A stretch of DNA of 59,317 nucleotides, the filler included. It is 5 parts of 5 records of this genome, joined end to end, with 100 filler letters (N's around TTAATTAATTAA, not from the genome) between each part and the next. Parts side by side here need not be neighbours in the genome. Positions count along the whole stretch, not along the records: positions 1 to 25,342 come from SRR20825006_1904; 4 more parts are not named here. One strand, written 5' to 3'. Under the pieces are notes generated by a model that worked only from the letters and a program-made list of their open reading frames with translations, ran no database searches and was not told the origin of the DNA. Made by a program: the position numbers and the translations under genes. Below, in pieces: positions 4,959-51,879 of the stretch (its first letter is position 1; each line of letters begins with the position of its first letter).

Positions 4959-5735
4959 ATGTCTGCGCAAATACAACGCTATAATATTCTTGCTATTGCG
5001 CAACCCGCCGAGGTCCAGCGCAGAAGGCATCTGGACGAAATGCTGTCGTCTCTTGGCATGCAGTATCAGCTTGTCAAAACATCACCACCGGTGCCTCAGA
5101 GCCAGTGGCACGAAGTCGGTTTCGATCATGAAAAATCTCGCTCTATCCTGGGACGAGACCTTTCCTGCGGAGAAATCGGCTGCTTTCTCAGCCATCGCAA
5201 TGCCTGGAAGGTTGCAGCCAATGCAAACTCGCCCTCCTTGATACTGGAAGGCGATGCAAAACTGGACCAGGATTCGCGAAATGTCTGCCAACTGCTCGCC
5301 CAGCGCGCCAGAAGCTGGGAACTGGCCATGCTGTATTACTCCAAATGCGTACCTTCTGTCTGGCAGCAACAACGATTGGACGATACGTTCCGATTAGCGA
5401 AGTTTGCCAACCGACGGGCATACTGCCTGGCAGCCTACATGGTCACCCCTGAAGGGGCGCAAAAACTACTGAATATGAGCGAAACATTTTACTTGCCGGC
5501 CGATGATTTTGTTTCCGGGGGATGGATCAGAAAAGACCTGGATATGTATGCCGTGATTCCTCAGGCGGCCGACCTTTGTGAAATTCAATCGTGCCATTCC
5601 AACCTGGAAGTCGGACGGCAAAAAAACAAGAAGCGCAAACACAAGAAAAAAGATAACACTCAACTTCTACGCCGGCTGGAGCTCTATCTGAGAGAGCTGG
5701 GCCAGCGATATCGCTGGCCACGTAAAAGCCTTTAG
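4959..5735 (+). CDS. Glycosyltransferase family 25 (LPS biosynthesis)
   Basis: [20 protein letters not shown] and [17 protein letters not shown] motifs. Confidence 0.85.
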
Positions 5736-6256
5736 GGCGACCCTCCCTGGTCAAGCGCCTTGATAACTCGAGCGGGAACGCCACCGACTAACGTCAGGGC
5801 CGGAACCGGACGATTGACCACCGCTCCCGCTGCCACAACCGCGCCATCCCCGATTTCGACACCCGCAGTAATTATCGCGCCAGCACCGATCCATACATCC
5901 TTGCCGATAGTAATGGGCGCACCGGTAGTGCCGCGGCGACCCTTTTCATTCAGATAAAGGCTGTGTTGCGCGCCCTCGAAACATACACGCGGCCCGATAC
6001 GACACCGCTCTCCCAGTGTTATCGACGCTTTCGGACAAGCAAACCGCACCTCGGTATTAATAAAGCAGCCCTTGCCAATATGCACCTTCCCGGCCCCTCC
6101 GATGGGACGAAGCGTCACAGGTCCATACACCGTCGAACGGCCCTGCATATCCATGCCTGCAGCCTTGAGCAGTAGCCAGCGAATCTTGTCGCTGAACTTC
6201 AACCGCGGAAGATGATTAGCCAGCCCCAGAAACAGAAACTCCCGCCACTGCTGCAT
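5732..6256 (-). CDS. Hexapeptide-repeat O-acetyltransferase
   Basis: [42 protein letters not shown] motif. Confidence 0.85.
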
Positions 6257-7035: not shown

Positions 7036-7985
7036 TTACCTGCTCCCAGAATCTTTAACCGGTCACGCCAGGTGATCGAAGGGGCCGGCTGAATCTCTGC
7101 CGACAGCAGCGCCGGAAATGCTGCCGCCCGGTCGACCCAGCGATGCTGCCTTGTCACCAACGCCTGCCCTGCACGGGCTATACGCTCTGCTGCCGGAGAA
7201 TCTGACGCCAGCCAGGCAAGCTTCTCCTCCAGCTCTTGCTCGCTGTCATACAGGACCACATTTTCACCTTCGACAAAACCCAGTGCAGCCTGCTCCTGCT
7301 CGGGCTGGCGCCAGGCAACCAGCAAACAGCCTGCTGCCATGGCTTCAAAATTCTTGATCATATACTCGCCGAAACCGATATCCGCGCTGACAAAACAACG
7401 GATCTGGTTAAGCAAACGGTTATAGGGTTCACCAGGGTCCGCACGCAACAACGCCACCCGCCCCAGCTTCTCTTGGCGCAGAAGGAACCGTTTGCGCTTC
7501 TTGTATACCTTGTTCTTCACCCTGCCCACGAAAGCGGCAACCTCTGCTCGCGGGATACCGAGATCGGTAATGACCTTGTTGTCATAACCCTTGGGCAAAT
7601 AGCAGGCATCAATGCCTTCGCTTCGTAACTGGTTCGCCAGTTGCGATCCAGACACAATAATCCGGACCTCACCGATATCTCGCAGCACAGAAGGATAGCG
7701 TTTGTACCATTCACTGGAAGACACATTGTTCTGACACACATCGTGATCAAACACGACCAGCCCGGGGGCTCGCTTCAGACACTGGTAGCGTTTACCAAGA
7801 CGACGCAGATTTGTGTCTGCGATAACCCTGTCGTAACCGCTGAAATCTGCCCCATTGAAATACGACTCAAGACCGTGCTCCCGTGTCACTTCCACATGAT
7901 CGAAGTCAAACACTTCCCGGGCCGCCTCCCACAACGGGCGCGTCACCATCAACTTGCCATCGGTGGACACAATCAGGGTCTTCAT
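7032..7985 (-). CDS. Glycosyltransferase (GT-B, Glyco_trans_1_2-like)
   Basis: EYMIKNFEAMAAGC..GENVVLY..IARAGQ..H.W motif. Confidence 0.8.
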   Translation of the reverse strand: MKTLIVSTDGKLMVTRPLWEAAREVFDFDHVEVTREHGLESYFNGADFSGYDRVIADTNLRRLGKRYQCLKRAPGLVVFDHDVCQNNVSSSEWYKRYPSVLRDIGEVRIIVSGSQLANQLRSEGIDACYLPKGYDNKVITDLGIPRAEVAAFVGRVKNKVYKKRKRFLLRQEKLGRVALLRADPGEPYNRLLNQIRCFVSADIGFGEYMIKNFEAMAAGCLLVAWRQPEQEQAALGFVEGENVVLYDSEQELEEKLAWLASDSPAAERIARAGQALVTRQHRWVDRAAAFPALLSAEIQPAPSITWRDRLKILGAGK

Positions 7986-9409
7986 AACCAGCTCTCAATC
8001 GATTTCAGTCGGGCCTGATAATAACTTTCGAATTCCTGCTCTGCCCCTGCTGCCAGTGCCTCACGGGGCTTCCAGCTCTCAAACAACCGCCTACGCTGTG
8101 CCTCCAGAGCGTGAGGCAGTGCGCCCCCCGGGAAGCGCACCATGCCATCCAGATCGATAACCTGCAGGACACCATCAACAAAAAGAAAATTAGTGTACTT
8201 GCTATCCCCATGACTGAAACGCATCAAAAGCATGGTTGCGAAAAAGTCGGCCATCTGCCTGAGCGCTTTCTCCCGGAACGGCCCGCCTTCTTCACAAATC
8301 TCAGGCAGCATGCGCCCATTTACATGTTCACAGACAAGATATTCTCTGCCCGTCAGCCCCTTACTTTTCTCCGACACGAAGCACAATGCCCGGGGAGTAT
8401 GAACATGCACAAGCGTCAAATAGCTCGCATTCATCCAGGAATTCCGTGCCCGACTGCGAAACTGTCTGGCCAGTCTTTTGGCAAAATTCTTCAGGTTATA
8501 GCGCTTGATCACTACCGGCTCTGCGCCGATATCGACACGCCATACCGTGGCGCTGTTTCCATCCTTGAGGTTCTCACTGCCGGGTAAAGTGTTATCCAAT
8601 CCCCTCTCCAGCAAGCCCTTCACTTTTTCCAGGTCGCCACGTCGACACATACCCGTAAGGCCTGGCACATGAAGCTCCGCAAACTCGGTGCAGTCGCGCA
8701 AGGATTTCTTGACCAGTTTGCGCAAGCGCTTGTCACGGACCCCCGCCAGCTTTCGGGCAATGTCTCTGGCACTGAAAATACCGCCATACCAACGAGCGAC
8801 CCTGTCAGCAGAGGGCAAAGACAAAGGCGGAAACTGGGCCAGAAGCAGGGCAAGATTATCCAAAGCGGCGCGAGCAGAGGGCGGGCCTTCTGACACCTGG
8901 ATATCACCCGCATCAATTACGTACCAGTTATCACCATGCTGAATAAAATTATTCAGATGGATATCCCGCTGCAGCGCCCCGGCCTTATGCATCCGGGCAG
9001 TCAACTCCACCAGAGACTGCAGCAAGACCTGATGCCCGGGCTCATCCGCCTCCTTCAGGACGATGCCCGCAGAACGCTCACCCAAATGCTCGAGCAACAA
9101 CATCGCCCCCTGGTCTTCCTCTTGAGCGACCAGAATATTGGGGGCAGGAATTCCTCGTTGTTGCAGATCCTCCAGAACACGCTTTTCACGGCTGAATTCC
9201 GTTATGGATCGAGAGGCCCGCGAAAAAATCTTGATGACGACCCGCGCCCCCGCTGCAGTCTGCCCTGCATAAATGGCTCGCCTTGAAGGCATGAAACGCA
9301 GCAGCTTTTCCACCCGAATTGCCGACTCACCCACTATCAGGGTCGCGGGCAACCCCGGCGTGCGGGTCGCCAGCAACATCTCCACAGAAACCTCAGGTGC
9401 TACCGCCAT
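7982..9409 (-). CDS. Tandem-domain LPS kinase (Kdo/WaaP/InaA family)
   Basis: Two kinase-like halves: QRDIHLNNF..IDAG and HGDSKYTNF..IDLD. Confidence 0.8.
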   Translation of the reverse strand: MAVAPEVSVEMLLATRTPGLPATLIVGESAIRVEKLLRFMPSRRAIYAGQTAAGARVVIKIFSRASRSITEFSREKRVLEDLQQRGIPAPNILVAQEEDQGAMLLLEHLGERSAGIVLKEADEPGHQVLLQSLVELTARMHKAGALQRDIHLNNFIQHGDNWYVIDAGDIQVSEGPPSARAALDNLALLLAQFPPLSLPSADRVARWYGGIFSARDIARKLAGVRDKRLRKLVKKSLRDCTEFAELHVPGLTGMCRRGDLEKVKGLLERGLDNTLPGSENLKDGNSATVWRVDIGAEPVVIKRYNLKNFAKRLARQFRSRARNSWMNASYLTLVHVHTPRALCFVSEKSKGLTGREYLVCEHVNGRMLPEICEEGGPFREKALRQMADFFATMLLMRFSHGDSKYTNFLFVDGVLQVIDLDGMVRFPGGALPHALEAQRRRLFESWKPREALAAGAEQEFESYYQARLKSIESWL

Positions 9410-13156: not shown

Positions 13157-14208
13157 TCATCTCCAACCAATTGCTCCAGAGCCTCAATAACCTGCGACGG
13201 TGGCAGTTGGCGCAAGCAGTTCAAGTGACCCAGCGGGCATTCACGCTCGAAACAGGGGCTGCACTCCAATCCCAATCGTACCACTGCCACCCGGTCGCCC
13301 AGGGGAGGCGTAAAGCCGGGAGAGGTGGAGCCGTAGACGGACACCAGTGGCCGCTTCAGGGCGGCCGCAATATGCATCAGGCCAGAATCATTACTGACCA
13401 CCGCCATGGTGGCCGAGAGCAGGTCCACAGCCTGCTCCAGGGATGTATTCCCCGCCAGCACCACCGCATGTTCATCGGCGCCATTCGCCAACGACCCGAC
13501 GATAACATCGGCCACGGGCTGGTCTTTTCCGGAACCAAAGATCCATACCTGCCCGCCACGCTCGATCCAGTACTGGGCCACTGCAGCATAATGATGCTCC
13601 GGCCAGCGCTTGGCCGGACCGAATTCAGCCCCGGGACACAGCCCCAGCACCGGGCGGTCCAGGTTCAGATTATGCGCCGCCATCGCCCCATTGCGCGAAT
13701 CGTCACTGACCTGCAAGTGCGGGGCGGTAATATCTTCCAGCCCCGGAACCGGTGCGCCTTCCGGCAACGCCAGCGCCACAAAGCGCTGCACCATCAAGGG
13801 GTAGCGTTGCTTGTCCAGTTTGCGCACATCGTTGAGCAGCCCATAGCGCATTTCGCCGCGCCAGCCGGTGCGCACCGGGACCTTCGCCGAAAACGGCACC
13901 AGCGCAGACTTGAGCGAATTGGGCAGCACATAACTTTGCTGATAGTGGCCGCGCAAGGATTTCCCCAGTGCGTGCCGCTCCCCAAGACGCAAATCGCCAT
14001 GGTCAAACGGCAACGCCAGCGCCTCACGCACTTCAGGCATGCGTGACAGCAGCGGCCGGCACCAGGTCGGCGCCAGCACATCGATAGCACAATCGGGGTA
14101 TTGATGACGCAGTTCGGAAAACAGCGTTTGCGCCATCACCATGTCGCCGACCCAGGACGGGCCGACGACAAGGATGGCGGAGGGCGAGTCGGTCAAGGTA
14201 GCCGGCAT
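13153..14208 (-). CDS. waaF: LPS heptosyltransferase II
   Basis: GPSWVGDMVMAQ, CPGAEFGPAKRWP and NDSGLMH motifs. Confidence 0.96.
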   Translation of the reverse strand: MPATLTDSPSAILVVGPSWVGDMVMAQTLFSELRHQYPDCAIDVLAPTWCRPLLSRMPEVREALALPFDHGDLRLGERHALGKSLRGHYQQSYVLPNSLKSALVPFSAKVPVRTGWRGEMRYGLLNDVRKLDKQRYPLMVQRFVALALPEGAPVPGLEDITAPHLQVSDDSRNGAMAAHNLNLDRPVLGLCPGAEFGPAKRWPEHHYAAVAQYWIERGGQVWIFGSGKDQPVADVIVGSLANGADEHAVVLAGNTSLEQAVDLLSATMAVVSNDSGLMHIAAALKRPLVSVYGSTSPGFTPPLGDRVAVVRLGLECSPCFERECPLGHLNCLRQLPPSQVIEALEQLVGDE

Positions 14209-15185: not shown

Positions 15186-18050
15186 CTACAGGTCGAACCA
15201 ATGCTTCCAGATCGCTCGCACGCCTTCACGCAAATCGCGGAATTGAGTGTCGTCGACAATGGATTTCTCTTTGCGCAACGAGGCGCGATGAGCCGCGGAC
15301 CGGTAAGCCAGGTAGGCTTCCCGCAGCAGGCCGGCATCCTGTGCCGACATAATGTCCAATGCGGCCAGTGTTTCCAGCAAGCGCACATTATCGGTGAAGC
15401 GGGTCAGTTCACCGTGGGAGGAGGCCCATCTCAGAACCCCGTATTGCACCATAAATTCGATATCAACGATACCTCCCGGATCCTGCTTGAGGTGAAAAGT
15501 GTCCGGGGTTTTGTCGGCCAGGTGATCCACCATCTTGGTCCGCATGGCCAGCACGTCTTCGCGGAGTTTGTCCTGCGGGCGCGAATCACACAGCACCTGA
15601 TGGCGAATATCGTTAAAGCGGGTACGCGCCCGGCTGCAACCGGCCACCACCCGGGCACGCACCAGCGCCTGATGCTCCCAGGTCCAGGCATCGTTGCGCT
15701 GGTACTTTTCAAACGCATCCATGGAACTCACCAACAGCCCGGCACTACCGGACGGACGCAGGCGCGTATCCACTTCGTAGAGCTGGCCGCTCATGGTGCG
15801 CGTGCCGATGATATGCACGATGCGCTGCCCCAAGCGGGCATAAAACTGCTCGTTAGAGACAGATTTTTCCCCGTCGGTCATGCCGCCACTGGCCGCATCG
15901 TGAAGGAACACCAGGTCCAGGTCGGAATTGTGTCCCAGCTCGATGCCTCCCAGCTTGCCATAGCCCACCACCACAAAATCCGGGCTACAGGGCTGGCCAT
16001 CATCCCGCGACGGGCGACCGTGGCGCTCGACCATGGGCTCCCAAGCCAGCATCACCACCTGATTGAGAATACTCTCGGCCAGCCAGGTCAGGTAATCGCT
16101 TACCTTCATCAATGGCAGCACTTCGGTCACTTCCGACGCCGCCACCCGCAACAGATGGGCCTGCTTGAAATTACGCAGCACCTCCATCTGTTGTTCCAGG
16201 TCATCTTCTGCCACCCGCAACAACTGCTGGCGCAGCTCGTCATCCAGCTCTGCCCGTTCCGGCGGCGAGTAAAGGGTGCGCACGTCGAGAAGCTCGTCGA
16301 GCAACACCGGGTGACGGGTGAGTCGCTCGGCAATCCAGGGGCTGGCGCCAGACAATTTCACCAACTGGGTCAGCGCGCTGGGGTTTTCCACCAGCAGTGC
16401 AATATAGGCACTGCGGCGCAATACCGCTTCCACGAAGGCGATCAAACGCGTGGCCGTCGTTTCACCATGCCCCTGGTAGCCCAGGGCTTCGAGCATCAAC
16501 GGCATCAACCGGTCCAGCCGCTCACGGCTGATGGTCTGCATGTTTTCTACCGACCGACTATTGCGGAACACATCCAGCTTGGCATAAACGGCATCGGCAT
16601 CCTGCACACCGATGGCACTGAGCTGTGCTACCGCAGCATCGTCATCCAGCTCGCCCAACCACAGATCCAGCAGCTCCTGATCGGCCCCCTGGGCGGCATC
16701 GGTTTCCTGTTCCGGGTCGGCAATCACCTGGCTGAAATGATGGCGCACACTTTCCCGGTAACGGCGCAGCTTGCGCTCAAAGGCGGCACGGGCAGAAAAA
16801 CCCATGGCAAACGTCAGCCGCTGCCAGCCCAATTCGTCATCCGGCAAGCGCTGAGTCTGCTTGTCCGCCACCGCCTGCAGGCGGTGCTCCACATCCCGCA
16901 GGAACAGGTAGGCCTCGGTGAGCTCATCGGCCACATCGTCGGGCAGCAGCTCCAGCTCCACCAGTTGCGGCAAAACCTTGATCAGATTCGGCTCACGCAG
17001 GGCTGGCAGCTGACCACCACGAATCAGCTGAAACGCCTGCACAATAAATTCCACTTCGCGAATGCCACCGGCGCCCAGCTTCACATCGGCCTGCATGCCC
17101 TTGCGATTCACTTCCCGCTCGATCAGGGACTTCATTTCCCGCAAGGACTGGAAAGCGCCGTAGTCGATATAGCGGCGATAGACGAAGGGATTCAAGCGCT
17201 TGATCAGGCGATCACCCGCCTGCAGATCGCCAGCCATGGGACGCATCTTGATCAGCGCATAACGCTCCCATTCACGGCCCTGGGTCTCGTAGTAACCCTC
17301 CATGGCATCAAAGCCGATGGCCAGCACGCCACTCTTGCCCCAGGGGCGCAGACGCATATCTACCCGGAAAACAAAACCGTCGGCAGTGGTCTGATCCAGC
17401 GCCTTGATCAATTGCTGGCCCAGGCGAACAAAGAACTGATGGTGGGTTAGCGCGCGGCGCTCGCCTTCTATTTCACCCTCGTGCTCGTAGGCAAAAATCA
17501 GGTCGATATCGGAAGACAGGTTCAGCTCGTGGGCGCCCAGCTTGCCCATGGCCAGCACCACCAGCCTCACGGGGTTACCGTCCGGGTCCAGCGGTGTACC
17601 ACTGCGCTCACAGGCCCAGCCGTACAGCACCGACAGCGCCTCGTCGATAAGGCTATCCGCCAGCAACGACAGGTCCGCCACGGCACTGTGGTAATCGCCG
17701 ATCCGAGCCAGATCTCGCCAGACAATGCGCACCATATGACGATGACGCAGACGGCGCAGGGCCCGTTTGAGGCTGTCCTCGCTGTCGCATTGCGCCAGCA
17801 GGGTGCGAATTTCCTCTTTCAGGGACGACGCCGCCAGCGCCTGGCTAAGGTCACTGGCCAGCAGCCACTCCCCCAGCCCCGGATCGCGCTGAAACTGGGC
17901 CGCCACGTAGTCAGAGCCCGCCCATACACGGGGCAAGTCGGCCAACAGGCCATCGGGGATACGGTGCCCGGATTCGACAAAGTGCATCCAGTGCTGGCTG
18001 ACCAGCACCGAGAGTTCATCCGGCAGGGAGTGATATTGGGGTTCATTCAT
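15186..18050 (-). CDS. glnE: Glutamine synthetase adenylyltransferase/adenylyl-removing enzyme
   Basis: Two NTase domains, GKLGAHELNLSSDIDL and GKLGGIELGHNSDLDL; 954 aa. Confidence 0.97.
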   Translation of the reverse strand: MNEPQYHSLPDELSVLVSQHWMHFVESGHRIPDGLLADLPRVWAGSDYVAAQFQRDPGLGEWLLASDLSQALAASSLKEEIRTLLAQCDSEDSLKRALRRLRHRHMVRIVWRDLARIGDYHSAVADLSLLADSLIDEALSVLYGWACERSGTPLDPDGNPVRLVVLAMGKLGAHELNLSSDIDLIFAYEHEGEIEGERRALTHHQFFVRLGQQLIKALDQTTADGFVFRVDMRLRPWGKSGVLAIGFDAMEGYYETQGREWERYALIKMRPMAGDLQAGDRLIKRLNPFVYRRYIDYGAFQSLREMKSLIEREVNRKGMQADVKLGAGGIREVEFIVQAFQLIRGGQLPALREPNLIKVLPQLVELELLPDDVADELTEAYLFLRDVEHRLQAVADKQTQRLPDDELGWQRLTFAMGFSARAAFERKLRRYRESVRHHFSQVIADPEQETDAAQGADQELLDLWLGELDDDAAVAQLSAIGVQDADAVYAKLDVFRNSRSVENMQTISRERLDRLMPLMLEALGYQGHGETTATRLIAFVEAVLRRSAYIALLVENPSALTQLVKLSGASPWIAERLTRHPVLLDELLDVRTLYSPPERAELDDELRQQLLRVAEDDLEQQMEVLRNFKQAHLLRVAASEVTEVLPLMKVSDYLTWLAESILNQVVMLAWEPMVERHGRPSRDDGQPCSPDFVVVGYGKLGGIELGHNSDLDLVFLHDAASGGMTDGEKSVSNEQFYARLGQRIVHIIGTRTMSGQLYEVDTRLRPSGSAGLLVSSMDAFEKYQRNDAWTWEHQALVRARVVAGCSRARTRFNDIRHQVLCDSRPQDKLREDVLAMRTKMVDHLADKTPDTFHLKQDPGGIVDIEFMVQYGVLRWASSHGELTRFTDNVRLLETLAALDIMSAQDAGLLREAYLAYRSAAHRASLRKEKSIVDDTQFRDLREGVRAIWKHWFDL

Positions 18051-20976: not shown

Positions 20977-22245
20977 ATGGAGTGGATGTTAGAGCACAGC
21001 TATCTGATGCTGCTGCTGGCCGGGGCCTTCGGCTTCCTGATGGCCTGGGGCGTGGGTGCCAACGATGTGGCTAACGCCATGGGCACCTCAGTAGGTTCCG
21101 GCGCCTTGACCGTGAAACAGGCGGTAATGATCGCCATTGTCTTTGAATTCTGTGGCGCCTATCTCGCCGGTGGCGAAGTGACCGCCACGGTACGCAAGGG
21201 AATCGTGGATGCCGGCGTCTTTGCCGAATTCCCCCACTATCTGGTCTACGGGATGATGTCCGCGCTACTGGCCGCCGGCATCTGGCTGATCGTGGCCTCC
21301 TGGTTTGGCTGGCCCGTTTCCACCACCCACTCCATTGTCGGCGCCATCGTCGGCTTTGCCGCCGTAGGCGTGGGTGTGGATGCGGTCCACTGGGGCAAGG
21401 TAGGTAACATCGTCGCCAGCTGGGTCACCTCACCGCTTCTCGCCGGCTTTATCTCCTTCGCCCTGATCAAGAGTGTCCAGAAACTGGTTCTCAGCCAGGA
21501 CGATCCGTTCCAGCGAGCCAAGCGCGTGGTGCCCTTCTATATGTTCCTGGTGGGCTTCGCGATTAGCGCTGTCACCTTGCTGAAAGGGCTCAAGCATATC
21601 GGCCTGGATATCAGCTATGGCGCCAGCCTCGGTTGGTCCGCAGTGGGGGGCCTTGTGGTCGCCCTGATCGGCGCAGCCTTCCTCAGTCGCATTCAACCGG
21701 ACCCGGAAGCCGATAAGGATTTCCGCTTCCACTCCGTGGAGCGCATCTTTGCGGTACTGATGATTTTTACCGCCTGTGCCATGGCTTTTGCTCACGGCTC
21801 CAATGATGTGGCCAACGCAGTGGGGCCACTGGCCGCCATCAACAGCGTCATCGTCAACGAAGGCATGATCGGCGGGGAAGCCACCATGCCGGGCTGGATT
21901 CTGCTGGTCGGCGCCATGGGCATCGTCTTCGGGCTGGCTATTCTCGGCGCCCGGGTCATGGCCACGGTGGGCAAGAACATTACCGAGCTGACCCCCAGTC
22001 GGGGCTTTGCTGCCGAGCTCGGCGCTGCCGGCACCGTGATCCTGGCCTCCGGCACCGGCCTGCCCATCTCCACCACTCACACCCTGGTGGGGGCGGTACT
22101 GGGCGTAGGCATGGCCCGGGGCATCGGTTCGCTCAATTTGCGGGTGGTGAGCACCATCTTCACCTCCTGGGTCGTTACCCTGCCCGCCGGCGCCTTGCTA
22201 TCGATCCTGTTCTTCTACTTCTTCAAGGGACTGTTTGGGGCATAG
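20977..22245 (+). CDS. Inorganic phosphate transporter (PiT family)
   Basis: GANDVANAMGTSVGS, GSNDVANAVGP and PVSTTHS motifs. Confidence 0.95.
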   Translation: MEWMLEHSYLMLLLAGAFGFLMAWGVGANDVANAMGTSVGSGALTVKQAVMIAIVFEFCGAYLAGGEVTATVRKGIVDAGVFAEFPHYLVYGMMSALLAAGIWLIVASWFGWPVSTTHSIVGAIVGFAAVGVGVDAVHWGKVGNIVASWVTSPLLAGFISFALIKSVQKLVLSQDDPFQRAKRVVPFYMFLVGFAISAVTLLKGLKHIGLDISYGASLGWSAVGGLVVALIGAAFLSRIQPDPEADKDFRFHSVERIFAVLMIFTACAMAFAHGSNDVANAVGPLAAINSVIVNEGMIGGEATMPGWILLVGAMGIVFGLAILGARVMATVGKNITELTPSRGFAAELGAAGTVILASGTGLPISTTHTLVGAVLGVGMARGIGSLNLRVVSTIFTSWVVTLPAGALLSILFFYFFKGLFGA

Positions 22246-22249
22246 AGAG

Positions 22250-22347
22250 ACGCCTCACGCTTCACGCAGCAGGCAACACGCTAACGCCGCCCTTCGGGCG
22301 GCGTTTTTGTTTAACATCAAGCGTCCGGCATCTGGCCTCAGGCGTAA
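22250..22347. repeat. Heptamer arrays flanking the pit terminator
   Basis: acgcctc/acgcttc/acgcagc/aggcaac/acgctaa before the hairpin; agcgtcc/ggcatct/ggcctca/ggcgtaa after it. Confidence 0.6.
22283..22312 (+). terminator. Rho-independent terminator after pit
   Basis: AACGCCGCCC-TTCG-GGCGGCGTT followed by a T tract. Confidence 0.85.
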
Positions 22348-22405
22348 TTCGCTGGCTATACTGACCAATCAACCACTTACCACCCCAATTTCAGGGAAAC
22401 ACGCC

Positions 22406-23725
22406 GTGCCCAGCATCACTCCCGACAGCCAGGTTCACTGGTTCCGCAATTCGTCCCCGTATATCAATGCGCACCGGGGCCGAACCTTTGTGGTCATGCT
22501 GTCCGGGGAGCTGCTGGACGGCCCGCGCCTGCCTACCCTGATTCACGATCTGGCACTGCTCAATAGCCTGGGCATCAAGCTGGTACTCGTCCATGGCGCC
22601 CGCCCACAAATTAGCGCCCGGCTGGCAGAATCCGGTATCGAGTCCACCTTCGAGCAACACATGCGCATCACCGACAGCGCCGCGCTGGATAGCGTCATGG
22701 CGGCGGTCGGCGCATTGCGCCTGAAGCTGGAAGGCCTGTTCTCCATGGGGCTGGCCAACTCCCCCATGCATAACGCCAGCATCCGCCTGGTCAGCGGCAA
22801 CTTCGTGGTGGCCAAACCGGTAGGCGTGCGCGGCGGTTTCGACTATCAACACACCGGTGAAGTGCGGCGCATCGACGTGGATGCCATTCGTCAGCAACTG
22901 GGTAACGGTAACGTGGTGCTCCTCTCGCCGGTTGGCGGCTCGCCCACCGGCGAGCTGTTCAACGTCAACGCGGAAGAAGTGGCCTCCACGGCCGCCATCG
23001 CCCTGGGCGCCGACAAGCTCATCATCATGGGCGAGCACCTGCGCCTGGCCGATCCGCAAGGCGACCTGGTGCGCGAACTCAGCCCCCAGCAAGCCGGCAA
23101 ACTGCTGGCCGGCGATCAGTACGAAGATAACGGCGTGGACCGGCAACTCACCGCCGCCTGCCACGCCGCCAGCAATGGCGTGGCCCGGGCCCACCTGCTC
23201 GATGCCCAGGTGGACGGCGCCCTGATCAAGGAACTGTTCACCCGCGACGGCTGTGGCACCCTGGTGACGAGGGAAACCTACGAAACCATCCGTGGCGCGC
23301 GCATTGAAGATGTCGGCGGCATTCTCGAATTGATCGAACCACTGGAAGAAGACGGCACCCTGGTGCGCCGCTCAAGAGAGCTACTGGAAAACGAAATCCA
23401 GCGCTTCGCCATCATCGAACGCGATGGCATGGTTATCGCCTGCGCCGCCCTCTACCCCTTCCCCGAAGACAAGACCGGCGAACTCGCCTGCGTCGCCGTT
23501 CACTCCAGCTATCGCAAAGGTCAACGGGGCGCCCAGGTACTCGCCTACCTGGAACGTCGGGCACGGGAACAGGGCCTGCACAGCTTGTTCGTGCTCACCA
23601 CGCTCACCGCGCACTGGTTTCAGCAACAGGGGTTTGAAGCGGCGGGAGTCGATGCACTGCCGGGAGCCCGGCAGTCGCTGTATAACTGGCAGCGGAATTC
23701 AAAGGTGTTTGTGAAGGGGCTTTGA
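22406..23725 (+). CDS. argA: Amino-acid N-acetyltransferase (N-acetylglutamate synthase)
   Basis: WFRNSSPYINAHRGRTFV, ELFTRDGCGT, C-terminal GNAT and YNWQRNSK; GTG start. Confidence 0.96.
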   Translation: MPSITPDSQVHWFRNSSPYINAHRGRTFVVMLSGELLDGPRLPTLIHDLALLNSLGIKLVLVHGARPQISARLAESGIESTFEQHMRITDSAALDSVMAAVGALRLKLEGLFSMGLANSPMHNASIRLVSGNFVVAKPVGVRGGFDYQHTGEVRRIDVDAIRQQLGNGNVVLLSPVGGSPTGELFNVNAEEVASTAAIALGADKLIIMGEHLRLADPQGDLVRELSPQQAGKLLAGDQYEDNGVDRQLTAACHAASNGVARAHLLDAQVDGALIKELFTRDGCGTLVTRETYETIRGARIEDVGGILELIEPLEEDGTLVRRSRELLENEIQRFAIIERDGMVIACAALYPFPEDKTGELACVAVHSSYRKGQRGAQVLAYLERRAREQGLHSLFVLTTLTAHWFQQQGFEAAGVDALPGARQSLYNWQRNSKVFVKGL

Positions 23726-23740
23726 AGGTTATCGACGGTT

Positions 23741-23830
23741 TTCTAACGCCGAGCGCAGCTGCAGCCATAAGTGGCGGCCTGTTTTTTAGGCCGTTGCTTA
23801 TGGCTGTCAGACTGGCGCGATTTGTTAGGC
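23741..23830 (-). mobile_element. Integron attC site (90 bp)
   Basis: Minus strand R'' GCCTAAC, 5-bp spacer, L'' GCGCCAGT, inner stem CAGCCATAAG/CTTATGGCTG and GGCCT/AGGCC, L' GCTGCGC, 5-bp spacer, R' GTTAGAA; the ORF stop TAA lies inside R''. Confidence 0.9.
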
Positions 23831-24307
23831 GCTGCACATGAGGCAATAATCCCAGCGGTCTCCCCGCTTAAACCGCAAAGGATTTGCCTTGCATGAAGAG
23901 CCGTGCGAAAACTCTAAAATGACTTCATCTTTATCTTCTATCCTGCCCACCTTGTATTGGCACGTGATGTCTTGTTCGTATTCGTGATTTTTATATGCCT
24001 CTAATTCTGAGCCCCCAAATGTAACAGAGGGGCACGATTCAGACTCCGAAGCAGTGACTGTAAGGTAGCCAGGATATTCATGCGTAAACGGAACCAAAGG
24101 AACGACAGGTCCAGCCACGAAGAGGCGAGATTCCGCTACACTTCCAGCAGACAATACAGAAAGACCACAGTCGTAGCTCGCACGCCCGCCCTGGATCTCC
24201 CATCCCTCACCGTCTATCGCCACGTAGCTACGATCTCGAATCGCAGACGAGCAGCCTATACAAAAGATGACGATTATTATCAGAGCGTACTTCATGTTTT
24301 CGCCTAA
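23747..24307 (-). mobile_element. Single integron gene cassette
   Basis: Core site GTTAGGC (24308-24302), 6 nt upstream of the ATG, is the exact complement of the attC inverse core GCCTAAC; cassette runs from G|TT to G|TT. Confidence 0.85.
23825..24295 (-). CDS. Cassette-encoded hypothetical lipoprotein (156 aa)
   Basis: MKYALIIIVIFCIGC signal/lipobox; more AT-rich than its neighbours; bounded by the core site and attC. Confidence 0.8.
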   Translation of the reverse strand: MKYALIIIVIFCIGCSSAIRDRSYVAIDGEGWEIQGGRASYDCGLSVLSAGSVAESRLFVAGPVVPLVPFTHEYPGYLTVTASESESCPSVTFGGSELEAYKNHEYEQDITCQYKVGRIEDKDEVILEFSHGSSCKANPLRFKRGDRWDYCLMCSA

Positions 24308-24673
24308 CAGGTATTAGGAAGCCAGCTCGAATATCCAATGAACGCGCCGGCTTGATATCACAGTTATAAATTCTTCATATCGAAAAAGAAAACCTTGTTT
24401 GTGAGCATGTTACACAGCCCAAACTGGCCGCATGATTCAATATGTTGACCTCTTCGTTTGCCCGGACCAATAACACTGTCCAAACGCCAGATATTCCCTC
24501 TCCGCTTTAACGCTTCCATTCTTCCTCACAAACACCGCATAAAGGTTCGGTGGCTCCAAAGGAAAGCCAGAACACTTAATGTTGTGGCCGCAAGCCGGAA
24601 GCCTCTTCCATGCGATTGCTCTTAGGCTTTCGTGTTTAACGGGAAAATTCAGCCTATCTCAGCAACTTACAAA

Positions 24674-24699
24674 AATATGTAAGCCAAATCCTACATATT
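24674..24699. promoter_or_regulatory. Imperfect palindrome resembling a GacA/UvrY box
   Basis: AATATGTAAG-CCAAAT-CCTACATATT (9/10 arms); core TGTAAG-N6-CCTACA versus consensus TGTAAG-N6-CTTACA. Confidence 0.4.
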
Positions 24700-24894
24700 C
24701 AACTGTCGCGCGGGTGAAAAACGGCGCTTTGCGATCCTGGGTATCGCAGCGATAGTCGCCAGTCTCATCGACACCGTTCCCGCCGCCTCCAGACTGCACT
24801 ATCTACGACCTCCGCTGCGCAAACTCCCGCAACAACAGCAAAGTGCACCAGCGCGCGACAATAATCTTTATGGCATTGCCATACCCACCGTCGA

Positions 24895-24922
24895 GTTCGC
24901 ACCTCGAGAGGTGTTCCTACAG
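24895..24922 (-). repeat. REP element (GTAG-type), single copy
   Basis: Minus strand CTGTAGGAACACCTCTCGAGGTGCGAAC, close to the REPs at 34875/34991. Confidence 0.75.
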
Positions 24923-25006
24923 GGGCAGTGACTAGCTACAGCCCGGGCCCTCTCTGGGTTACAATGCTCGGCTTACGTTCCGCTATTGACCATTAACGAG
25001 GTTCCC

Positions 25007-25342
25007 ATGCCGCAGTATCGCTCCCGTACCACCACCCATGGCCGCAACATGGCTGGCGCCCGTGCCCTGTGGCGCGCAACGGGCATGAAGGACGGGGACT
25101 TCGGTAAGCCGATTATTGCCATCGCCAACTCCTTTACCCAGTTCGTTCCCGGGCACGTGCACCTGAAGGACATGGGCCAGCTGGTGGCCGGTGAAGTGGA
25201 GAAGGCCGGGGGCATCGCCAAGGAATTCAACACCATTGCGGTGGATGACGGCATCGCCATGGGCCACGACGGGATGCTCTACTCCCTGCCCAGCCGCGAC
25301 ATCATTGCCGATTCCGTGGAATACATGGTCAACGCCCACTGC
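25007..25342 (+). CDS. ilvD: Dihydroxy-acid dehydratase, 5' part (truncated by contig end)
   Basis: [42 protein letters not shown]. Confidence 0.96.
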
Positions 25343-25442
25343 NNNNNNNNNNNNNNNNNNNNNNNNNNNNNNNNNNNNNNNNNNNNTTAATTAATTAANN
25401 NNNNNNNNNNNNNNNNNNNNNNNNNNNNNNNNNNNNNNNNNN
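25343..25442. other. Artificial contig spacer (Ns + TTAATTAATTAA)
   Basis: 100-nt N run with an all-frame stop linker. Confidence 0.99.
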
Positions 25443-25471
25443 GATGCTCTATCCAGCTGAGCTACGGGACC
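25443..25471 (-). tRNA. 5' part of a tRNA, probably tRNA-Arg (truncated by contig end)
   Basis: GGTCCCG-TA-GCTC-AGCTGGATA-GAGC-A-TC: acceptor 5' strand and D arm with the Arg-type GGATA loop; anticodon not visible. Confidence 0.8.
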
Positions 25472-25521
25472 TTGTATGTTGTCTCGACGAGGTATGCGTT
25501 TGCCTCATCGGATATCAATGA

Positions 25522-25705: not shown

Positions 25706-26845
25706 ATGACCATGAATCGCACCGCTCTCTCGCTCCTGATCGCCGCCATGTGCGCCCTGCTCACCACCAACGCCAGCGCCAATGACGCCGTCTTTGGCGG
25801 CACCGGCGCTGACCTCGTGCCGCTCGAAGAGAAGACGCTCAAGATGGCCTCCGAGGATATCCTCATCGAAGAGGTCGGGCCGAAGGGAAAGTGGAAGAGC
25901 AATCACTGGGAGATCAAGGCGACCTACGTCTTCGAGAACCCCAGCGATACCGCGAGGAAGGCGACCTTTGGCTTCCCCGAGGCCAGCTGTGACCCGGAAG
26001 AGACCCCCTGCAACATCCGCGACGAAAAACGCGACAACACCTTCTACAACATGAAGACCACGGTCGACGGCAAGAAGGTCAAGGTCAAGCTCGGCAAGGT
26101 CTCCAAGAAGAACGCCTGGGCGCCAGAGCTTGGCCGCGTGCACCTGTTCGAGGTCAAGGTCCCCGCCAAATCGAAAATCACCGTCGTCCATCAGTACGAG
26201 ATGGGCATGTCCGGCTCGTTCATGCAAGAGAACGCGCTAGAGTACGTCACGCGCACCGGCTCGCTCTGGAACGGACCGATCGGGAGCGCGCGCTTCACCA
26301 TCCGCGTCAAGGATCGCCCCTGGGGATTTCACTACCCCGAGACCTACGACCTCGAATCCTTCACGACCAGAAAGGTAGGCAAGCACTACAAGACCGAGAT
26401 CGTCTTCGCGATGAAAGACTGGACGCCCACACAAGACCTCGCGCTCACGCTCGCCTCGGATTACATCACGCACCAAAAATGCCCCTCGATCCTGATGCAC
26501 GCAGACGCCCTGCGTGATGAGAAGGGAGGGATCGATCTCGAGTACGCCAAGGAGACCTTCGAGGACCTCTCGAAAGAAGATCTGCGCATGTGTCGAAACA
26601 TCCCCTACGCCCACCACGGCTACACCTTCAAGGATAAGAAGCTCGACACTCTCTTTTACCCGAAGAGCATCTCCGAGCCCGCCACCAAGTCCAACTGGGC
26701 CTCGCTCGGGCAGCTCGGGTTGGTCAAAGAGAAACACCGCGTCGTCACCTTCGCCAAGTCCTCCAACTACTCCTCGGAGATGCTCTCCAAGAACGAGCTC
26801 ACCTACGTGCGCGCGATCAAGGCCGTCGAGAAAACACGGGACTGA
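25706..26845 (+). CDS. Secreted protein, DUF4424-like N-terminal region plus C-terminal YARHG domain
   Basis: Signal peptide; M.SEDI..Y.F.N..GFP and Y..RTGSLWNGPIG motifs; RNIPYAHHGYTFKD. Confidence 0.75.
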   Translation: MTMNRTALSLLIAAMCALLTTNASANDAVFGGTGADLVPLEEKTLKMASEDILIEEVGPKGKWKSNHWEIKATYVFENPSDTARKATFGFPEASCDPEETPCNIRDEKRDNTFYNMKTTVDGKKVKVKLGKVSKKNAWAPELGRVHLFEVKVPAKSKITVVHQYEMGMSGSFMQENALEYVTRTGSLWNGPIGSARFTIRVKDRPWGFHYPETYDLESFTTRKVGKHYKTEIVFAMKDWTPTQDLALTLASDYITHQKCPSILMHADALRDEKGGIDLEYAKETFEDLSKEDLRMCRNIPYAHHGYTFKDKKLDTLFYPKSISEPATKSNWASLGQLGLVKEKHRVVTFAKSSNYSSEMLSKNELTYVRAIKAVEKTRD

Positions 26846-26923
26846 CAGGTCGCCATATCCTGGCTGCGAGCGCTGGCCAGTGATAATCTCTCTCTCCGTG
26901 TGAACCTCCAGAAGAGGCCAGGC

Positions 26924-28078
26924 ATGCGCGCCCACCTTGTGCCCCGACAACCGACCTGCGCCAACAGGCGCTCGCTCATCGCGGCGCTCGCGCTTTTGGC
27001 ATCGACCGGGTGCGCCACGAGCGAGGTCGAGGACGCGCAGCAAGACCCTGGCATCGTCATCATCCAGGATATGGGCTCGGGCCTCGAGGATATGCGCGCT
27101 ACAACCAGCGATGATATGCCCTCCTCGCCAGACCAGGATATGAGCACGGTCACGCGAGACATGCGCGCCGATGTGCCGGACGCTGGCGAGGATATGTCGA
27201 CGCCGCCAGCTCCCGACATGGACGAGGTGCGCACATGTCAGGCGGATAACCAGTGCGTCATCGGCTCCTACTGCGACCTCACCCAGAACATATGCGTCTC
27301 TGATTGCCTCGAGCACGAGGACTGCCCCGCAGGCTGGACCTGCGAGGACACACGAGGGCGCTGCGAGGATCACGCCGATGACTGCGGTGATGATGTCTGC
27401 GACTCGTTCGAGGATTGCGAGATATGTCCGGCCGACTGCGGGTGTGGCCCAAACCAAGACTGCGACCAGGGGGTCTGCGTTTGCCAGGACACCTGCTCGC
27501 CCGGCGCGACCGAGTGCGACGCTGGCGGCACGCGCTCTTGCACCGCTGACGAGGAGGGGTGCCTCGAGTGGTCCGCCACGACCCCATGCCAGGGAAGCTG
27601 TATGAACGGCATGTGCAGCTGCATGGCGGCCTGCGGCTCCAGCGAATGCGGCATGGATGGCTGCGGAGGGAGCTGCGGCGCGTGCACCTTTGCCTGCGGC
27701 GCTGGCGACCTCTGCACCAGACAACTGACCATCAACTACGTCGAGACGAGCTGCTCTGCCGATTGCCAGGATGCCTTCGATCCGACAGACCCCTTCCTCA
27801 AGCTCACGATCGCTGGCCAGACCTACAGCAAGGACGAAGGCGCGCGCGACCGATGCGGTAACACGAGGACGGCTGAAAACTGGATCGTGGGTGACGCGAA
27901 TCACACCTTTACCTTTGCCCAGCTCCAGCAAGTCACCGTCGAGGTCTACGACGCGGACACCTTCAACAGCGACGACCTCTGTGCGCGCTGGACCAACGTC
28001 GACCTGACCGCACATGGCACCCAGACGCTGGTCAGCGACGATGGGCTCGTGCGCGTGAGCTTGAGGATCAACAAATGA
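26924..28078 (+). CDS. Cys-rich lipoprotein with xDM linker repeats and a C-terminal C2-like domain
   Basis: Lipobox LASTGC; seven xDM motifs; EGF-like Cys repeats (CGMDGCGGSCGAC); DPFLKL..VTVEVYDADTFNSDDLC. Confidence 0.75.
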   Translation: MRAHLVPRQPTCANRRSLIAALALLASTGCATSEVEDAQQDPGIVIIQDMGSGLEDMRATTSDDMPSSPDQDMSTVTRDMRADVPDAGEDMSTPPAPDMDEVRTCQADNQCVIGSYCDLTQNICVSDCLEHEDCPAGWTCEDTRGRCEDHADDCGDDVCDSFEDCEICPADCGCGPNQDCDQGVCVCQDTCSPGATECDAGGTRSCTADEEGCLEWSATTPCQGSCMNGMCSCMAACGSSECGMDGCGGSCGACTFACGAGDLCTRQLTINYVETSCSADCQDAFDPTDPFLKLTIAGQTYSKDEGARDRCGNTRTAENWIVGDANHTFTFAQLQQVTVEVYDADTFNSDDLCARWTNVDLTAHGTQTLVSDDGLVRVSLRINK

Positions 28079-31815: not shown

Positions 31816-31915
31816 NNNNNNNNNNNNNNNNNNNNNNNNNNNNNNNNNNNNNNNNNNNNTTAATTAATTAANNNNNNNNNNNNNNNNNNNNNNNNNNNNN
31901 NNNNNNNNNNNNNNN
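31816..31915. other. Artificial contig spacer
   Basis: 100-nt N run with TTAATTAATTAA. Confidence 0.99.
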
Positions 31916-35110: not shown

Positions 35111-35295
35111 GTGCTTCCTGGCCCGTGCGCCAGAGGGTCAAGTCCCCTTGCCGATAATGTACTACCCGGGGGCATATATTGCCTTGTCCGTGTGCATGTC
35201 CGCCTATTGAGCGGAAAGCCTGAGGGCAAAGCTGCTGCCTCCACCTTGAACCTTCGGTTCAAGGGTCAAACCCGCAGCGGCGGGCCGGGAAGCAC
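35111..35295 (+). ncRNA. ssrS: 6S RNA
   Basis: Between zapA and fau; complementary ends GTGCTTCC/GGAAGCAC; CCTTGAACC-TTC-GGTTCAAGG element; about 185 nt. Confidence 0.9.
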
Positions 35296-42156: not shown

Positions 42157-42256
42157 NNNNNNNNNNNNNNNNNNNNNNNNNNNNNNNNNNNNNNNNNNNN
42201 TTAATTAATTAANNNNNNNNNNNNNNNNNNNNNNNNNNNNNNNNNNNNNNNNNNNN
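42157..42256. other. Artificial contig spacer
   Basis: 100-nt N run with TTAATTAATTAA. Confidence 0.99.
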
Positions 42257-51779: not shown

Positions 51780-51879
51780 NNNNNNNNNNNNNNNNNNNNN
51801 NNNNNNNNNNNNNNNNNNNNNNNTTAATTAATTAANNNNNNNNNNNNNNNNNNNNNNNNNNNNNNNNNNNNNNNNNNNN
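51780..51879. other. Artificial contig spacer
   Basis: 100-nt N run with TTAATTAATTAA. Confidence 0.99.

Follow-up and report, generated by a model that had tools for sequence, protein, structure and literature searches.

The window analysed here, a stretch of 59,317 bp in all, is a chain of draft contigs joined via N44-TTAATTAATTAA-N44 linkers, and its first contig carries a single integron gene cassette, one open reading frame (ORF) with its own attC site, between argA and ilvD of Alcanivorax, an oil-degrading marine bacterium. argA (maximal ORF 22235..23725, + strand; AA_kinase and GNAT domains) converges on the cassette, and its stop codon ends at 23725, 15 nt from the R' box of attC. The cassette is a recombination unit of 561 bp (23747..24307, - strand), bounded by the TT of an upstream core, GTTAGGC, and by the G of R' (GTTAGAA). 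Beyond it lie a non-coding platform of 428 bp (24305..24732, - strand), a variable segment (24733..24935) and a conserved ilvD leader (24936..25006, + strand), followed by ilvD itself (+ strand, probable ATG at 25007), which was identified by ILVD_EDD_N. Contig 1 stops at 25342 within ilvD; the argA-ilvD interval itself is whole. The G+C content is ~60% in the flanks versus 45-51% over 23750-24800. A preliminary description had read the interval as a lone cassette with a canonical attC and no neighbouring integrase, ending at argA, and all the anatomical elements that it listed are present in the minus-strand sequence, up to the argA stop at the end of the array.

In integrons, crossover takes place at G/TT, attC recombines through its bottom strand, which exposes extrahelical bases, the boxes of attC are named R'', L'', L' and R', and attI1 has the DR1/DR2 layout. 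The core consensus is RYYYAAC for R'' and GTTRRRY for R'. We took the G/TT crossover for the ends of the recombination unit, which fits the break of homology among the window and three related loci described below. The minus strand reads ...cctGTTAGGCgaaaacATG, with the G of the upstream core (24308-24302) at 24308, followed by gaaaac and the ATG of the cassette ORF at 24295. This core stands at the attI x attC junction and is the exact reverse complement of the cassette's own R'' GCCTAAC (23830-23824), inside which the TAA of the ORF (23827-23825) sits. The 7/7 match, which the preliminary description had called the signature of a circular cassette, indicates that the cassette was inserted as a circle.

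The attC site is 90 nt long (23741..23830, - strand) and is recognized by its sequence, its fold and model matches. R'' is followed by a 5-nt spacer (AAATC) and by L'' GCGCCAGT (23818-23811), after which comes a long, imperfect terminal hairpin that contains a perfect inner stem of 10 bp, CAGCCATAAG at 23806-23797 with CTTATGGCTG at 23771-23762. The other arm is completed by L' GCTGCGC (23759-23753), a second 5-nt spacer (TCGGC) and R' GTTAGAA (23747-23741). The final base of R' is A and not a pyrimidine, as expected where a hybrid core closes an array. As DNA, the bottom strand of attC, which is the + strand of the window, folds with -28.9 kcal/mol (z -4.9; none of 200 shuffles as good), and the value for the top strand is poorer (-26.1). 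The bottom-strand fold leaves three single-base bulges (T, A and G), every one of them on the 3' ('') arm, which bears R'' and L''. The extrahelical bases looked for in the preliminary description are therefore there, including its extra base in L'', although they number three on the bottom strand (G, A and T) rather than one.

Related loci were collected by an ArgA scan, with one genome per species, giving 63 loci (designated by L numbers) nearly all from Alcanivorax, Alloalcanivorax and other Alcanivoracaceae. A strict pattern scan, which demanded RYYYAAC and GTTRR, L boxes that pair exactly and bulges confined to the left arm, gave three matches on both strands of 1,135,131 bp of relatives and the 59,317-bp window, all three in argA-ilvD intervals and on the minus strand; a looser, fold-based scan found many more such sites within these intervals. 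A MAFFT alignment of five sites of very unequal length (A1) was too poor to model, and seven sites of similar length from relatives, none from the window, were used instead for a covariance model, R1, with a consensus structure of an R box, a 3-nt gap and an L box with one bulge. R1 matches 23741-23830 (- strand) over the full length of the site at 25.1 bits, with an E-value of 0.0086 for the window and 63 loci searched on both strands (1.19 Mb). The preliminary description had named an attC covariance model as a check, and the match of R1, a model built from relatives, together with the boxes, spacers and fold bears out a canonical attC. At E<=1, all 26 matches of R1 lie in argA-ilvD intervals on the minus strand. 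A second model, R2, was built from those 26 sites, so that it contains only Alcanivorax sequence and its training set includes the site of the window. Its matches in the window and 63 loci again all fall in argA-ilvD intervals on the minus strand (34/34), and with filters off it finds only the attC in the window, at 38.7 bits, the next best match scoring 8.6 bits (E 9.2). Similar sites in A. borkumensis SK2 are listed as attC by IntegronFinder's own model, in two attC clusters that have no integron integrase (CALINs), at 2058565-2059369 and 2635863-2636371 of NC_008260, in the tables of PMC4889954.

The 34 sites also covary. In the L-box helix, 9/9 pairs have changed on both sides, and 92.7% of the stem cells pair, compared to 65.7% in shuffled alignments (a level of 92.7% was reached in 0/500) and, with slid partners, 26-38%. 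A covariation score of 0.635 was obtained, versus 0.167 in shuffles, from an alignment whose fit to the model favours the structure.

Class 1 integrons were used as controls, namely plasmid R100 with In2 (intI1, aadA1) and a second integron with blaIMP-1 and aac(6')-IIc. With filters off, R2 matched the aadA1 attC of R100 (13475-13534) at 31.0 bits (E 5.6e-6 in the 50 kb searched), which was the sole significant match there, the runner-up reaching 11.8 bits. In the second integron the top match was the blaIMP-1 attC (5979-6105; 30.4 bits, E 2.3e-6), and the site between aac(6')-IIc and qacEdelta1 (5241-5310) came second with 14.9 bits (E 0.042). The Alcanivorax-only model recovered in this way three out of three class 1 attC sites whose places are fixed by annotation.

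The cassette adjoins a platform that is shared with relatives. The platform is of a kind that we call type A and is 85-91% identical to L001, L002 and L003; it has no coding frame common to the relatives and no match in Pfam or Rfam. The attI-like site occupies its end (24309..24359, - strand), with TTCCTAAT-ACCT beside the junction and, as judged by eye, an imperfect pair of GATAT... direct repeats (24359-24346 and 24335-24321). In a four-way alignment of the window, L001, L002 and L003, homology extends up to ...TTCCTAATAYCTGTT and stops just past GTT, after which the window continues with AGGC, L001 with ATCT, L002 with ATGT and L003 with CTGC. A second junction, type B (...TGAATAcgCTGTT), is unrelated to type A and plays the same role in L005, L006, L007, L009 and L050. 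Type B platforms have a pair of direct repeats close to the junction, spaced by 15 bp, compared to 19 bp in attI1 of R100. The exact complement of the first detected R'' stands upstream in 10 of 11 arrays, in eight of them where a platform of type A or type B ends, and these eight junctions (type A in the window, L001 and L002; type B in L005, L006, L007, L009 and L050) are followed by eight different first cassettes. In the other two, L015 and L020, the junction 7-mers match R'' at places that are not recognizable platform ends; these matches may be due to chance and are left outside the count of eight. A fixed junction that is reused by different cassettes and at which homology breaks at GTT behaves as an attI site, and the comparison thus indicates that the cassette is inserted at a conserved attI-like junction and not at an arbitrary place.

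Both junction types occur in tandem in L005, type A near ilvD (14626) and type B ~1 kb further in (15571-15660), each followed by cassettes. The most widely kept part of the platform is a block of ~90 bp at 24629-24728, which is found in L001-L003, L005, L006, L007 and L009, and is therefore common even to loci with the other junction type. It contains a short palindrome, ATGTA...TACAT, and may be a candidate promoter or regulator site for the array. A simple sigma-70 scan of 23600-25100 gave no site on the minus strand.

The same interval is variable across the 63 loci. ilvD comes after argA in most of them, with a gap of between ~11 bp and ~8 kb: in 13 deeper-branching loci it is 10-21 bp and the two genes look operonic, in a few loci it is 60-133 bp, and in the rest ~0.8-8 kb. 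The intervals of closer relatives have a G+C content of 42-53% and ORFs chiefly on the minus strand. Ten of the 63 loci have attC sites there, between one and 10 per interval and without exception in the cassette orientation. The cassette of the window is therefore alone in that the window has one attC, as the preliminary description stated, but not in the sense that the address belongs to a single cassette. The comparison across relatives that the description had suggested gave differing cassettes, and some intervals without an attC match. In arrays, the last four bases of each R' derive from the next cassette, so that the complement of its own R'' precedes each cassette. This is what we find for the relatives, in which 17 of 21 consecutive cassettes have a 7/7 complement of their own R'' upstream. 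The variable positions of R'', corresponding to the last four bases of R', differ between sites, and the consensus alone can therefore not explain the 7/7 matches.

The one pair of loci from the same species consists of the window and L001, an Alcanivorax metagenome-assembled genome whose ArgA is 100% identical to that of the window. The two share 98.8% identity over 11.4 kb up to 23759, inside the last attC, and 99.3% from 24936 onward, the ilvD leader being 97-99% identical. Between these flanks the platform is 87% identical, 24733-24935 is unmatched, L001 having an unrelated segment of 268 bp in its place, and the one cassette of the window is unrelated to the two of L001. Mismatches rise mildly in the last kilobase of argA. 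The simplest reading appears to be that a whole integron allele was replaced via homologous recombination in the flanking genes, for which no integrase is needed. Allele exchange would explain this pair, but not the origin of many different arrays.

No integrase was found beside any of these sites. A tblastn search of the window and the 63 loci with IntI1 of R100 gave a best E-value of 1.6, none of the 88 interval ORFs of 24 loci has a recombinase domain, and no recombinase emerged at E<=10 from a Pfam search of the 12 frames, stop to stop, in 24356-24935. One candidate remnant was rejected as noise: residues 1-35 of IntI1 align with L005 14928-15041 (E 5.1), in a suggestive place, but stop codons interrupt the stretch. 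The ORFs on the plus strand next to the type B junctions gave no alignment with IntI1 or among themselves. The searches thus indicate that there is neither intI nor a remnant of it in the window or the 63 loci, which for the stretch up to ilvD agrees with the preliminary description, and that the locus has no intI adjoining attI as in a complete integron. According to the IntegronFinder 2.0 tables of PMC9024848, A. borkumensis SK2 has no complete integron, no In0 and two CALINs, Alcanivorax sp. NBRC 101098 has one complete integron, one In0 and two CALINs, A. xenomutans has neither a complete integron nor an In0 and has one CALIN, and A. dieselolei and A. pacificus have zero of each kind. On these counts, integron integrases do occur in the genus, although some genomes with arrays lack them.

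We suggest the following mechanism. An IntI-type tyrosine recombinase would have made the attC bottom strand fold and joined it to the attI-like site by recombination at G/TT, with the hybrid cores, GTTAGGC upstream and GTTAGAA downstream, as the outcome. The integrase would have acted in trans, its gene being either at another place in the genome or on a mobile element passing through, and the finished arrays would pass between strains as whole alleles when the flanking core genes recombine homologously. That an integrase should act in trans is plausible because NBRC 101098 has a complete integron, an In0 and CALINs, as tabulated in PMC9024848. Taken as a whole, with a cassette at an attI-type junction, an integrase in trans and arrays exchanged as alleles, this is probably the right explanation of the locus.

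Several observations weigh against this explanation. The catalyst is postulated, the 59-kb window and the 63 loci being devoid of integrases, and the arrays of SK2, a genome tabulated as free of integrases throughout (PMC4889954, PMC9024848), may be inert, at least there. The only same-species pair points to allele replacement and not to cassette capture in place. Among 18 closer relatives with an interval of >250 bp, eight have no attC match there and contain other genes, for PIN toxins, a nucleotidyl transferase and a GGDEF-EAL protein among others. At the junctions, L003 matches in 5/7 positions by hand count, and a gapless repeat search finds no direct repeats in the type A site of the window. 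Four of the 21 core pairs are imperfect, one of which (5/7, in L050) spans a partial attC match outside the tally. The unpaired base of L'' is C on the top strand here and in aadA1 and is G in 26 of the 34 family members. Finally, R2 was trained with the site of the window, so that the only independent score of that site is the weaker one from R1, and both R1 and R2 missed the aadA1 attC under the default speed filters.

The strongest alternative is that the locus is an inert relic. A complete integron would once have stood here, intI would have been deleted and recombination would have ceased, and the present differences between loci would be old polymorphism, cassette loss and array exchange. 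The lack of intI in all 63 loci fits such a history, as does SK2, which has CALINs and, genome-wide, no integrase according to PMC4889954 and PMC9024848. The diverged platform allele of the window and L001 (87% identity versus 98.8% in the flanks) needs no integrase either, and the terminal R' is decayed in L002 (GCTAGAA), L006 (TTCATTC) and L009 (TTCACAC). A single early loss of intI, however, cannot give eight junctions with eight first cassettes in species whose flanks are 84-99% identical, and many independent losses without trace would be unparsimonious. With 17 of 21 core pairs still perfect and 92.7% of stem cells still pairing, long decay also seems at odds with the state of the sites, and at least one Alcanivorax genome encodes integron integrases in the counts of PMC9024848. 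We therefore regard the relic as rather unlikely. Between the two readings of the preliminary description, insertion in trans and a relic, we lean towards action in trans combined with the homologous exchange of whole arrays.

An off-target event fares worse. Loot et al. reportedly observed cassette insertion into ordinary genomic (attG-type) sites in E. coli, and a visiting integrase could in principle have placed the cassette at such a site, without any attI, as a single attC lacking an integron integrase (SALIN). The window has one attC only, and SALINs are common, with 3400 in 21,105 complete genomes (10.1101/2022.09.11.507474). The junction sequence is nevertheless conserved, other species have different cassettes at it, homology stops at GTT, and the same place is occupied by arrays of up to 10 sites, which makes an off-target origin quite improbable. 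It is hardly credible that no integron is involved, with a terminator or a repeated palindromic element as the hairpin and a core match by chance: argA and the cassette ORF do converge on the hairpin and one terminator-like pattern overlaps it on the + strand, but the terminator scan is at chance level (one found versus 1.8 expected), the T-run is in the loop and not after the stem, the family of sites has attC-specific boxes, covariation and cross-recognition with class 1 attC sites, and the models have no matches outside the intervals in 1.19 Mb.

If the explanation by an integrase in trans is carried one step further, the argA-ilvD platform would be a working integron in two parts, an orphan attI and its array, which selection would maintain in an Alcanivorax clade, and an integrase wholly in trans. 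We put this forward tentatively, as a possibility that is more doubtful than the mechanism itself. If true, types A and B, which stand side by side in L005, would be the targets of different integrases, and arrays without integrases would be active capture sites, not debris. A bolder version, in which some host recombinase takes the place of IntI, is much less likely.

The cargo of the cassette is a 156-aa ORF (23825..24295, - strand), an orphan without a promoter of its own. Its N-terminus is hydrophobic and lipoprotein-like (MKYALIIIVIFCIGC/SS), with a signal that, read by eye, ends in IGC/SS. The protein is cysteine-rich, and several of the cysteines are conserved. Six homologues with 65-99% identity, all metagenomic and unnamed, were found in a large protein collection; they conserve the ORF end to end, with 37 invariant columns. 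The ORF has no match in Pfam, NCBIfam or PADLOC families and no tblastn match in the 63 related loci. Atlas look-alikes suggested 'lipoprotein' weakly (0.91 with low recognition), and no function was drawn from them. An AlphaFold2 model from a seven-row alignment is all-beta and unreliable, with a predicted local distance difference test score (pLDDT) of 49.2. We suggest annotating the ORF as a cassette-borne hypothetical lipoprotein and the interval as an integron cassette array.

The first cassettes past the type A junction in relatives encode an unassigned protein of 293 aa in L001, a DUF2971 protein of 332 aa in L002 and a DUF2750 protein of 131 aa in L003. Several cassettes at the same address resemble anti-phage defence genes, including AAA+TIR, TIR, ThsB-like TIR, caspase, KAP NTPase, AbiJ, PD-T4-10_B and PIN; these defence-like cassettes lie at L003 11465-14513, L006 12605-13966, L015 4081-4920 and L001 11418-12065.

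Among the intervals without an attC match, L004 11318-19265 contains ordinary-looking genes (GGDEF-EAL, AraC regulator, oxidoreductases), and L010, L011 and L014 contain a PIN toxin in a region of which L017, also without an attC match, shares ~660 bp. In these five loci the array seems to have been displaced or never to have been present. The 133-bp intervals of L012 and L013 were considered as an empty site and rejected, as they have only the ilvD leader in common with the window and no core site. L015 has a 576-aa ORF (7282-9012, - strand) without a Pfam or PADLOC match between a type A platform fragment and ilvD, a position upstream of the junction where cassettes are not expected. The intervals of L015, L020 and L050 have inverted copies of a ~110-180-bp repeat close to either end, which may be a small mobile or palindromic element.

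The remainder of the window touches the cassette less directly. The four linkers are at 25343-25442, 31816-31915, 42157-42256 and 51780-51879, and genes beside them, for example ilvD at 25342, are truncated by contig ends and not by biology. The second contig starts with the apparent end of a tRNA gene on the minus strand (25443-25475, gatgctctatccagctgagctacggga..., read from the sequence), followed by a DUF4424/YARHG protein (25706-26845, + strand) and a cysteine-rich protein of 392 aa without a family (26900-28078, + strand). The 6S RNA (SsrS) at 35112-35295 (+ strand, 97.5 bits) is the sole Rfam family above its gathering score in the window. A search of 23600-25100 by Rfam E-value gave only sub-threshold chance matches, with no attC family among the matches examined.

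Arrays of attC sites without integrases number thousands in genome surveys, and whether they are dead remnants or live capture sites is unsettled. The locus described here offers a clean natural test, since it combines a fixed address between core genes and a conserved junction of two types with array states from zero detectable to ~10 attC sites, in a culturable and non-pathogenic genus that has members with and without integron integrases. A same-species pair that differs by a whole array allele would in addition reveal a route of cassette movement that needs no integrase. CALINs have been listed in Alcanivorax before, two in SK2, two in NBRC 101098 and one in A. xenomutans (IntegronFinder tables in PMC4889954 and PMC9024848). 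Searches of a limited collection of literature, PMC7725336 included, gave no description of a fixed argA-ilvD address, of its orphan junction in two types or of the range of array states. The SALIN/CALIN class is thus known, and what appears to be new is the argA-ilvD address, the orphan junction of two types and the range of array states across the genus.

As in the SALIN/CALIN class (Cury et al. 2016; 10.1101/2022.09.11.507474), the cassette is bounded by attC and has no integrase nearby; with one attC and no intI in the window, the locus falls within the class as delimited in 10.1101/2022.09.11.507474, namely by attC without a nearby integrase. It differs from the class as described there in its conserved attI-like junction, in the two types of this junction and in its single chromosomal place across a genus. 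The cassettes of relatives at the same site fit the defence-rich arrays reported for sedentary chromosomal integrons (bioRxiv 10.1101/2024.07.02.601686), whereas the window's own cassette belongs to no defence family. In Xanthomonas, an integron beside ilvD is described in PMC12444791 as genus-wide and vertically kept, with arrays that differ by lineage, an integrase that is often inactive, and abrupt drops in identity that are read as recombination (citing Gillings et al. 2005). There, however, ilvD is followed downstream by intI or its pseudogene (PMC12444791), whereas here the array is upstream of ilvD and no trace of intI is seen. ilvD as a common neighbour may be a coincidence; among experimental IntI1 insertions, a site in E. 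coli ilvD is one of six hotspots, and we draw nothing from the recurrence of ilvD.

The class 1 integron In2 (Tn21, R100) offers the closest view of individual sites. The aadA1 attC has 60 bp and two bulges, compared to 90 nt, a long, imperfect terminal hairpin and three bulges in the window, and its cargo is a resistance gene, whereas that of the window is an orphan lipoprotein-like ORF with no intI beside the attI-like site. In both systems the cassettes lie on the strand opposite to that of intI, or here of the place where intI would be. The two attC sites share the same plan, with RYYTAAC, a spacer starting with AA and an L'' with an extra C, and in both an extra A follows ~6 nt further in and GC-GTTAGAn stands at the end.

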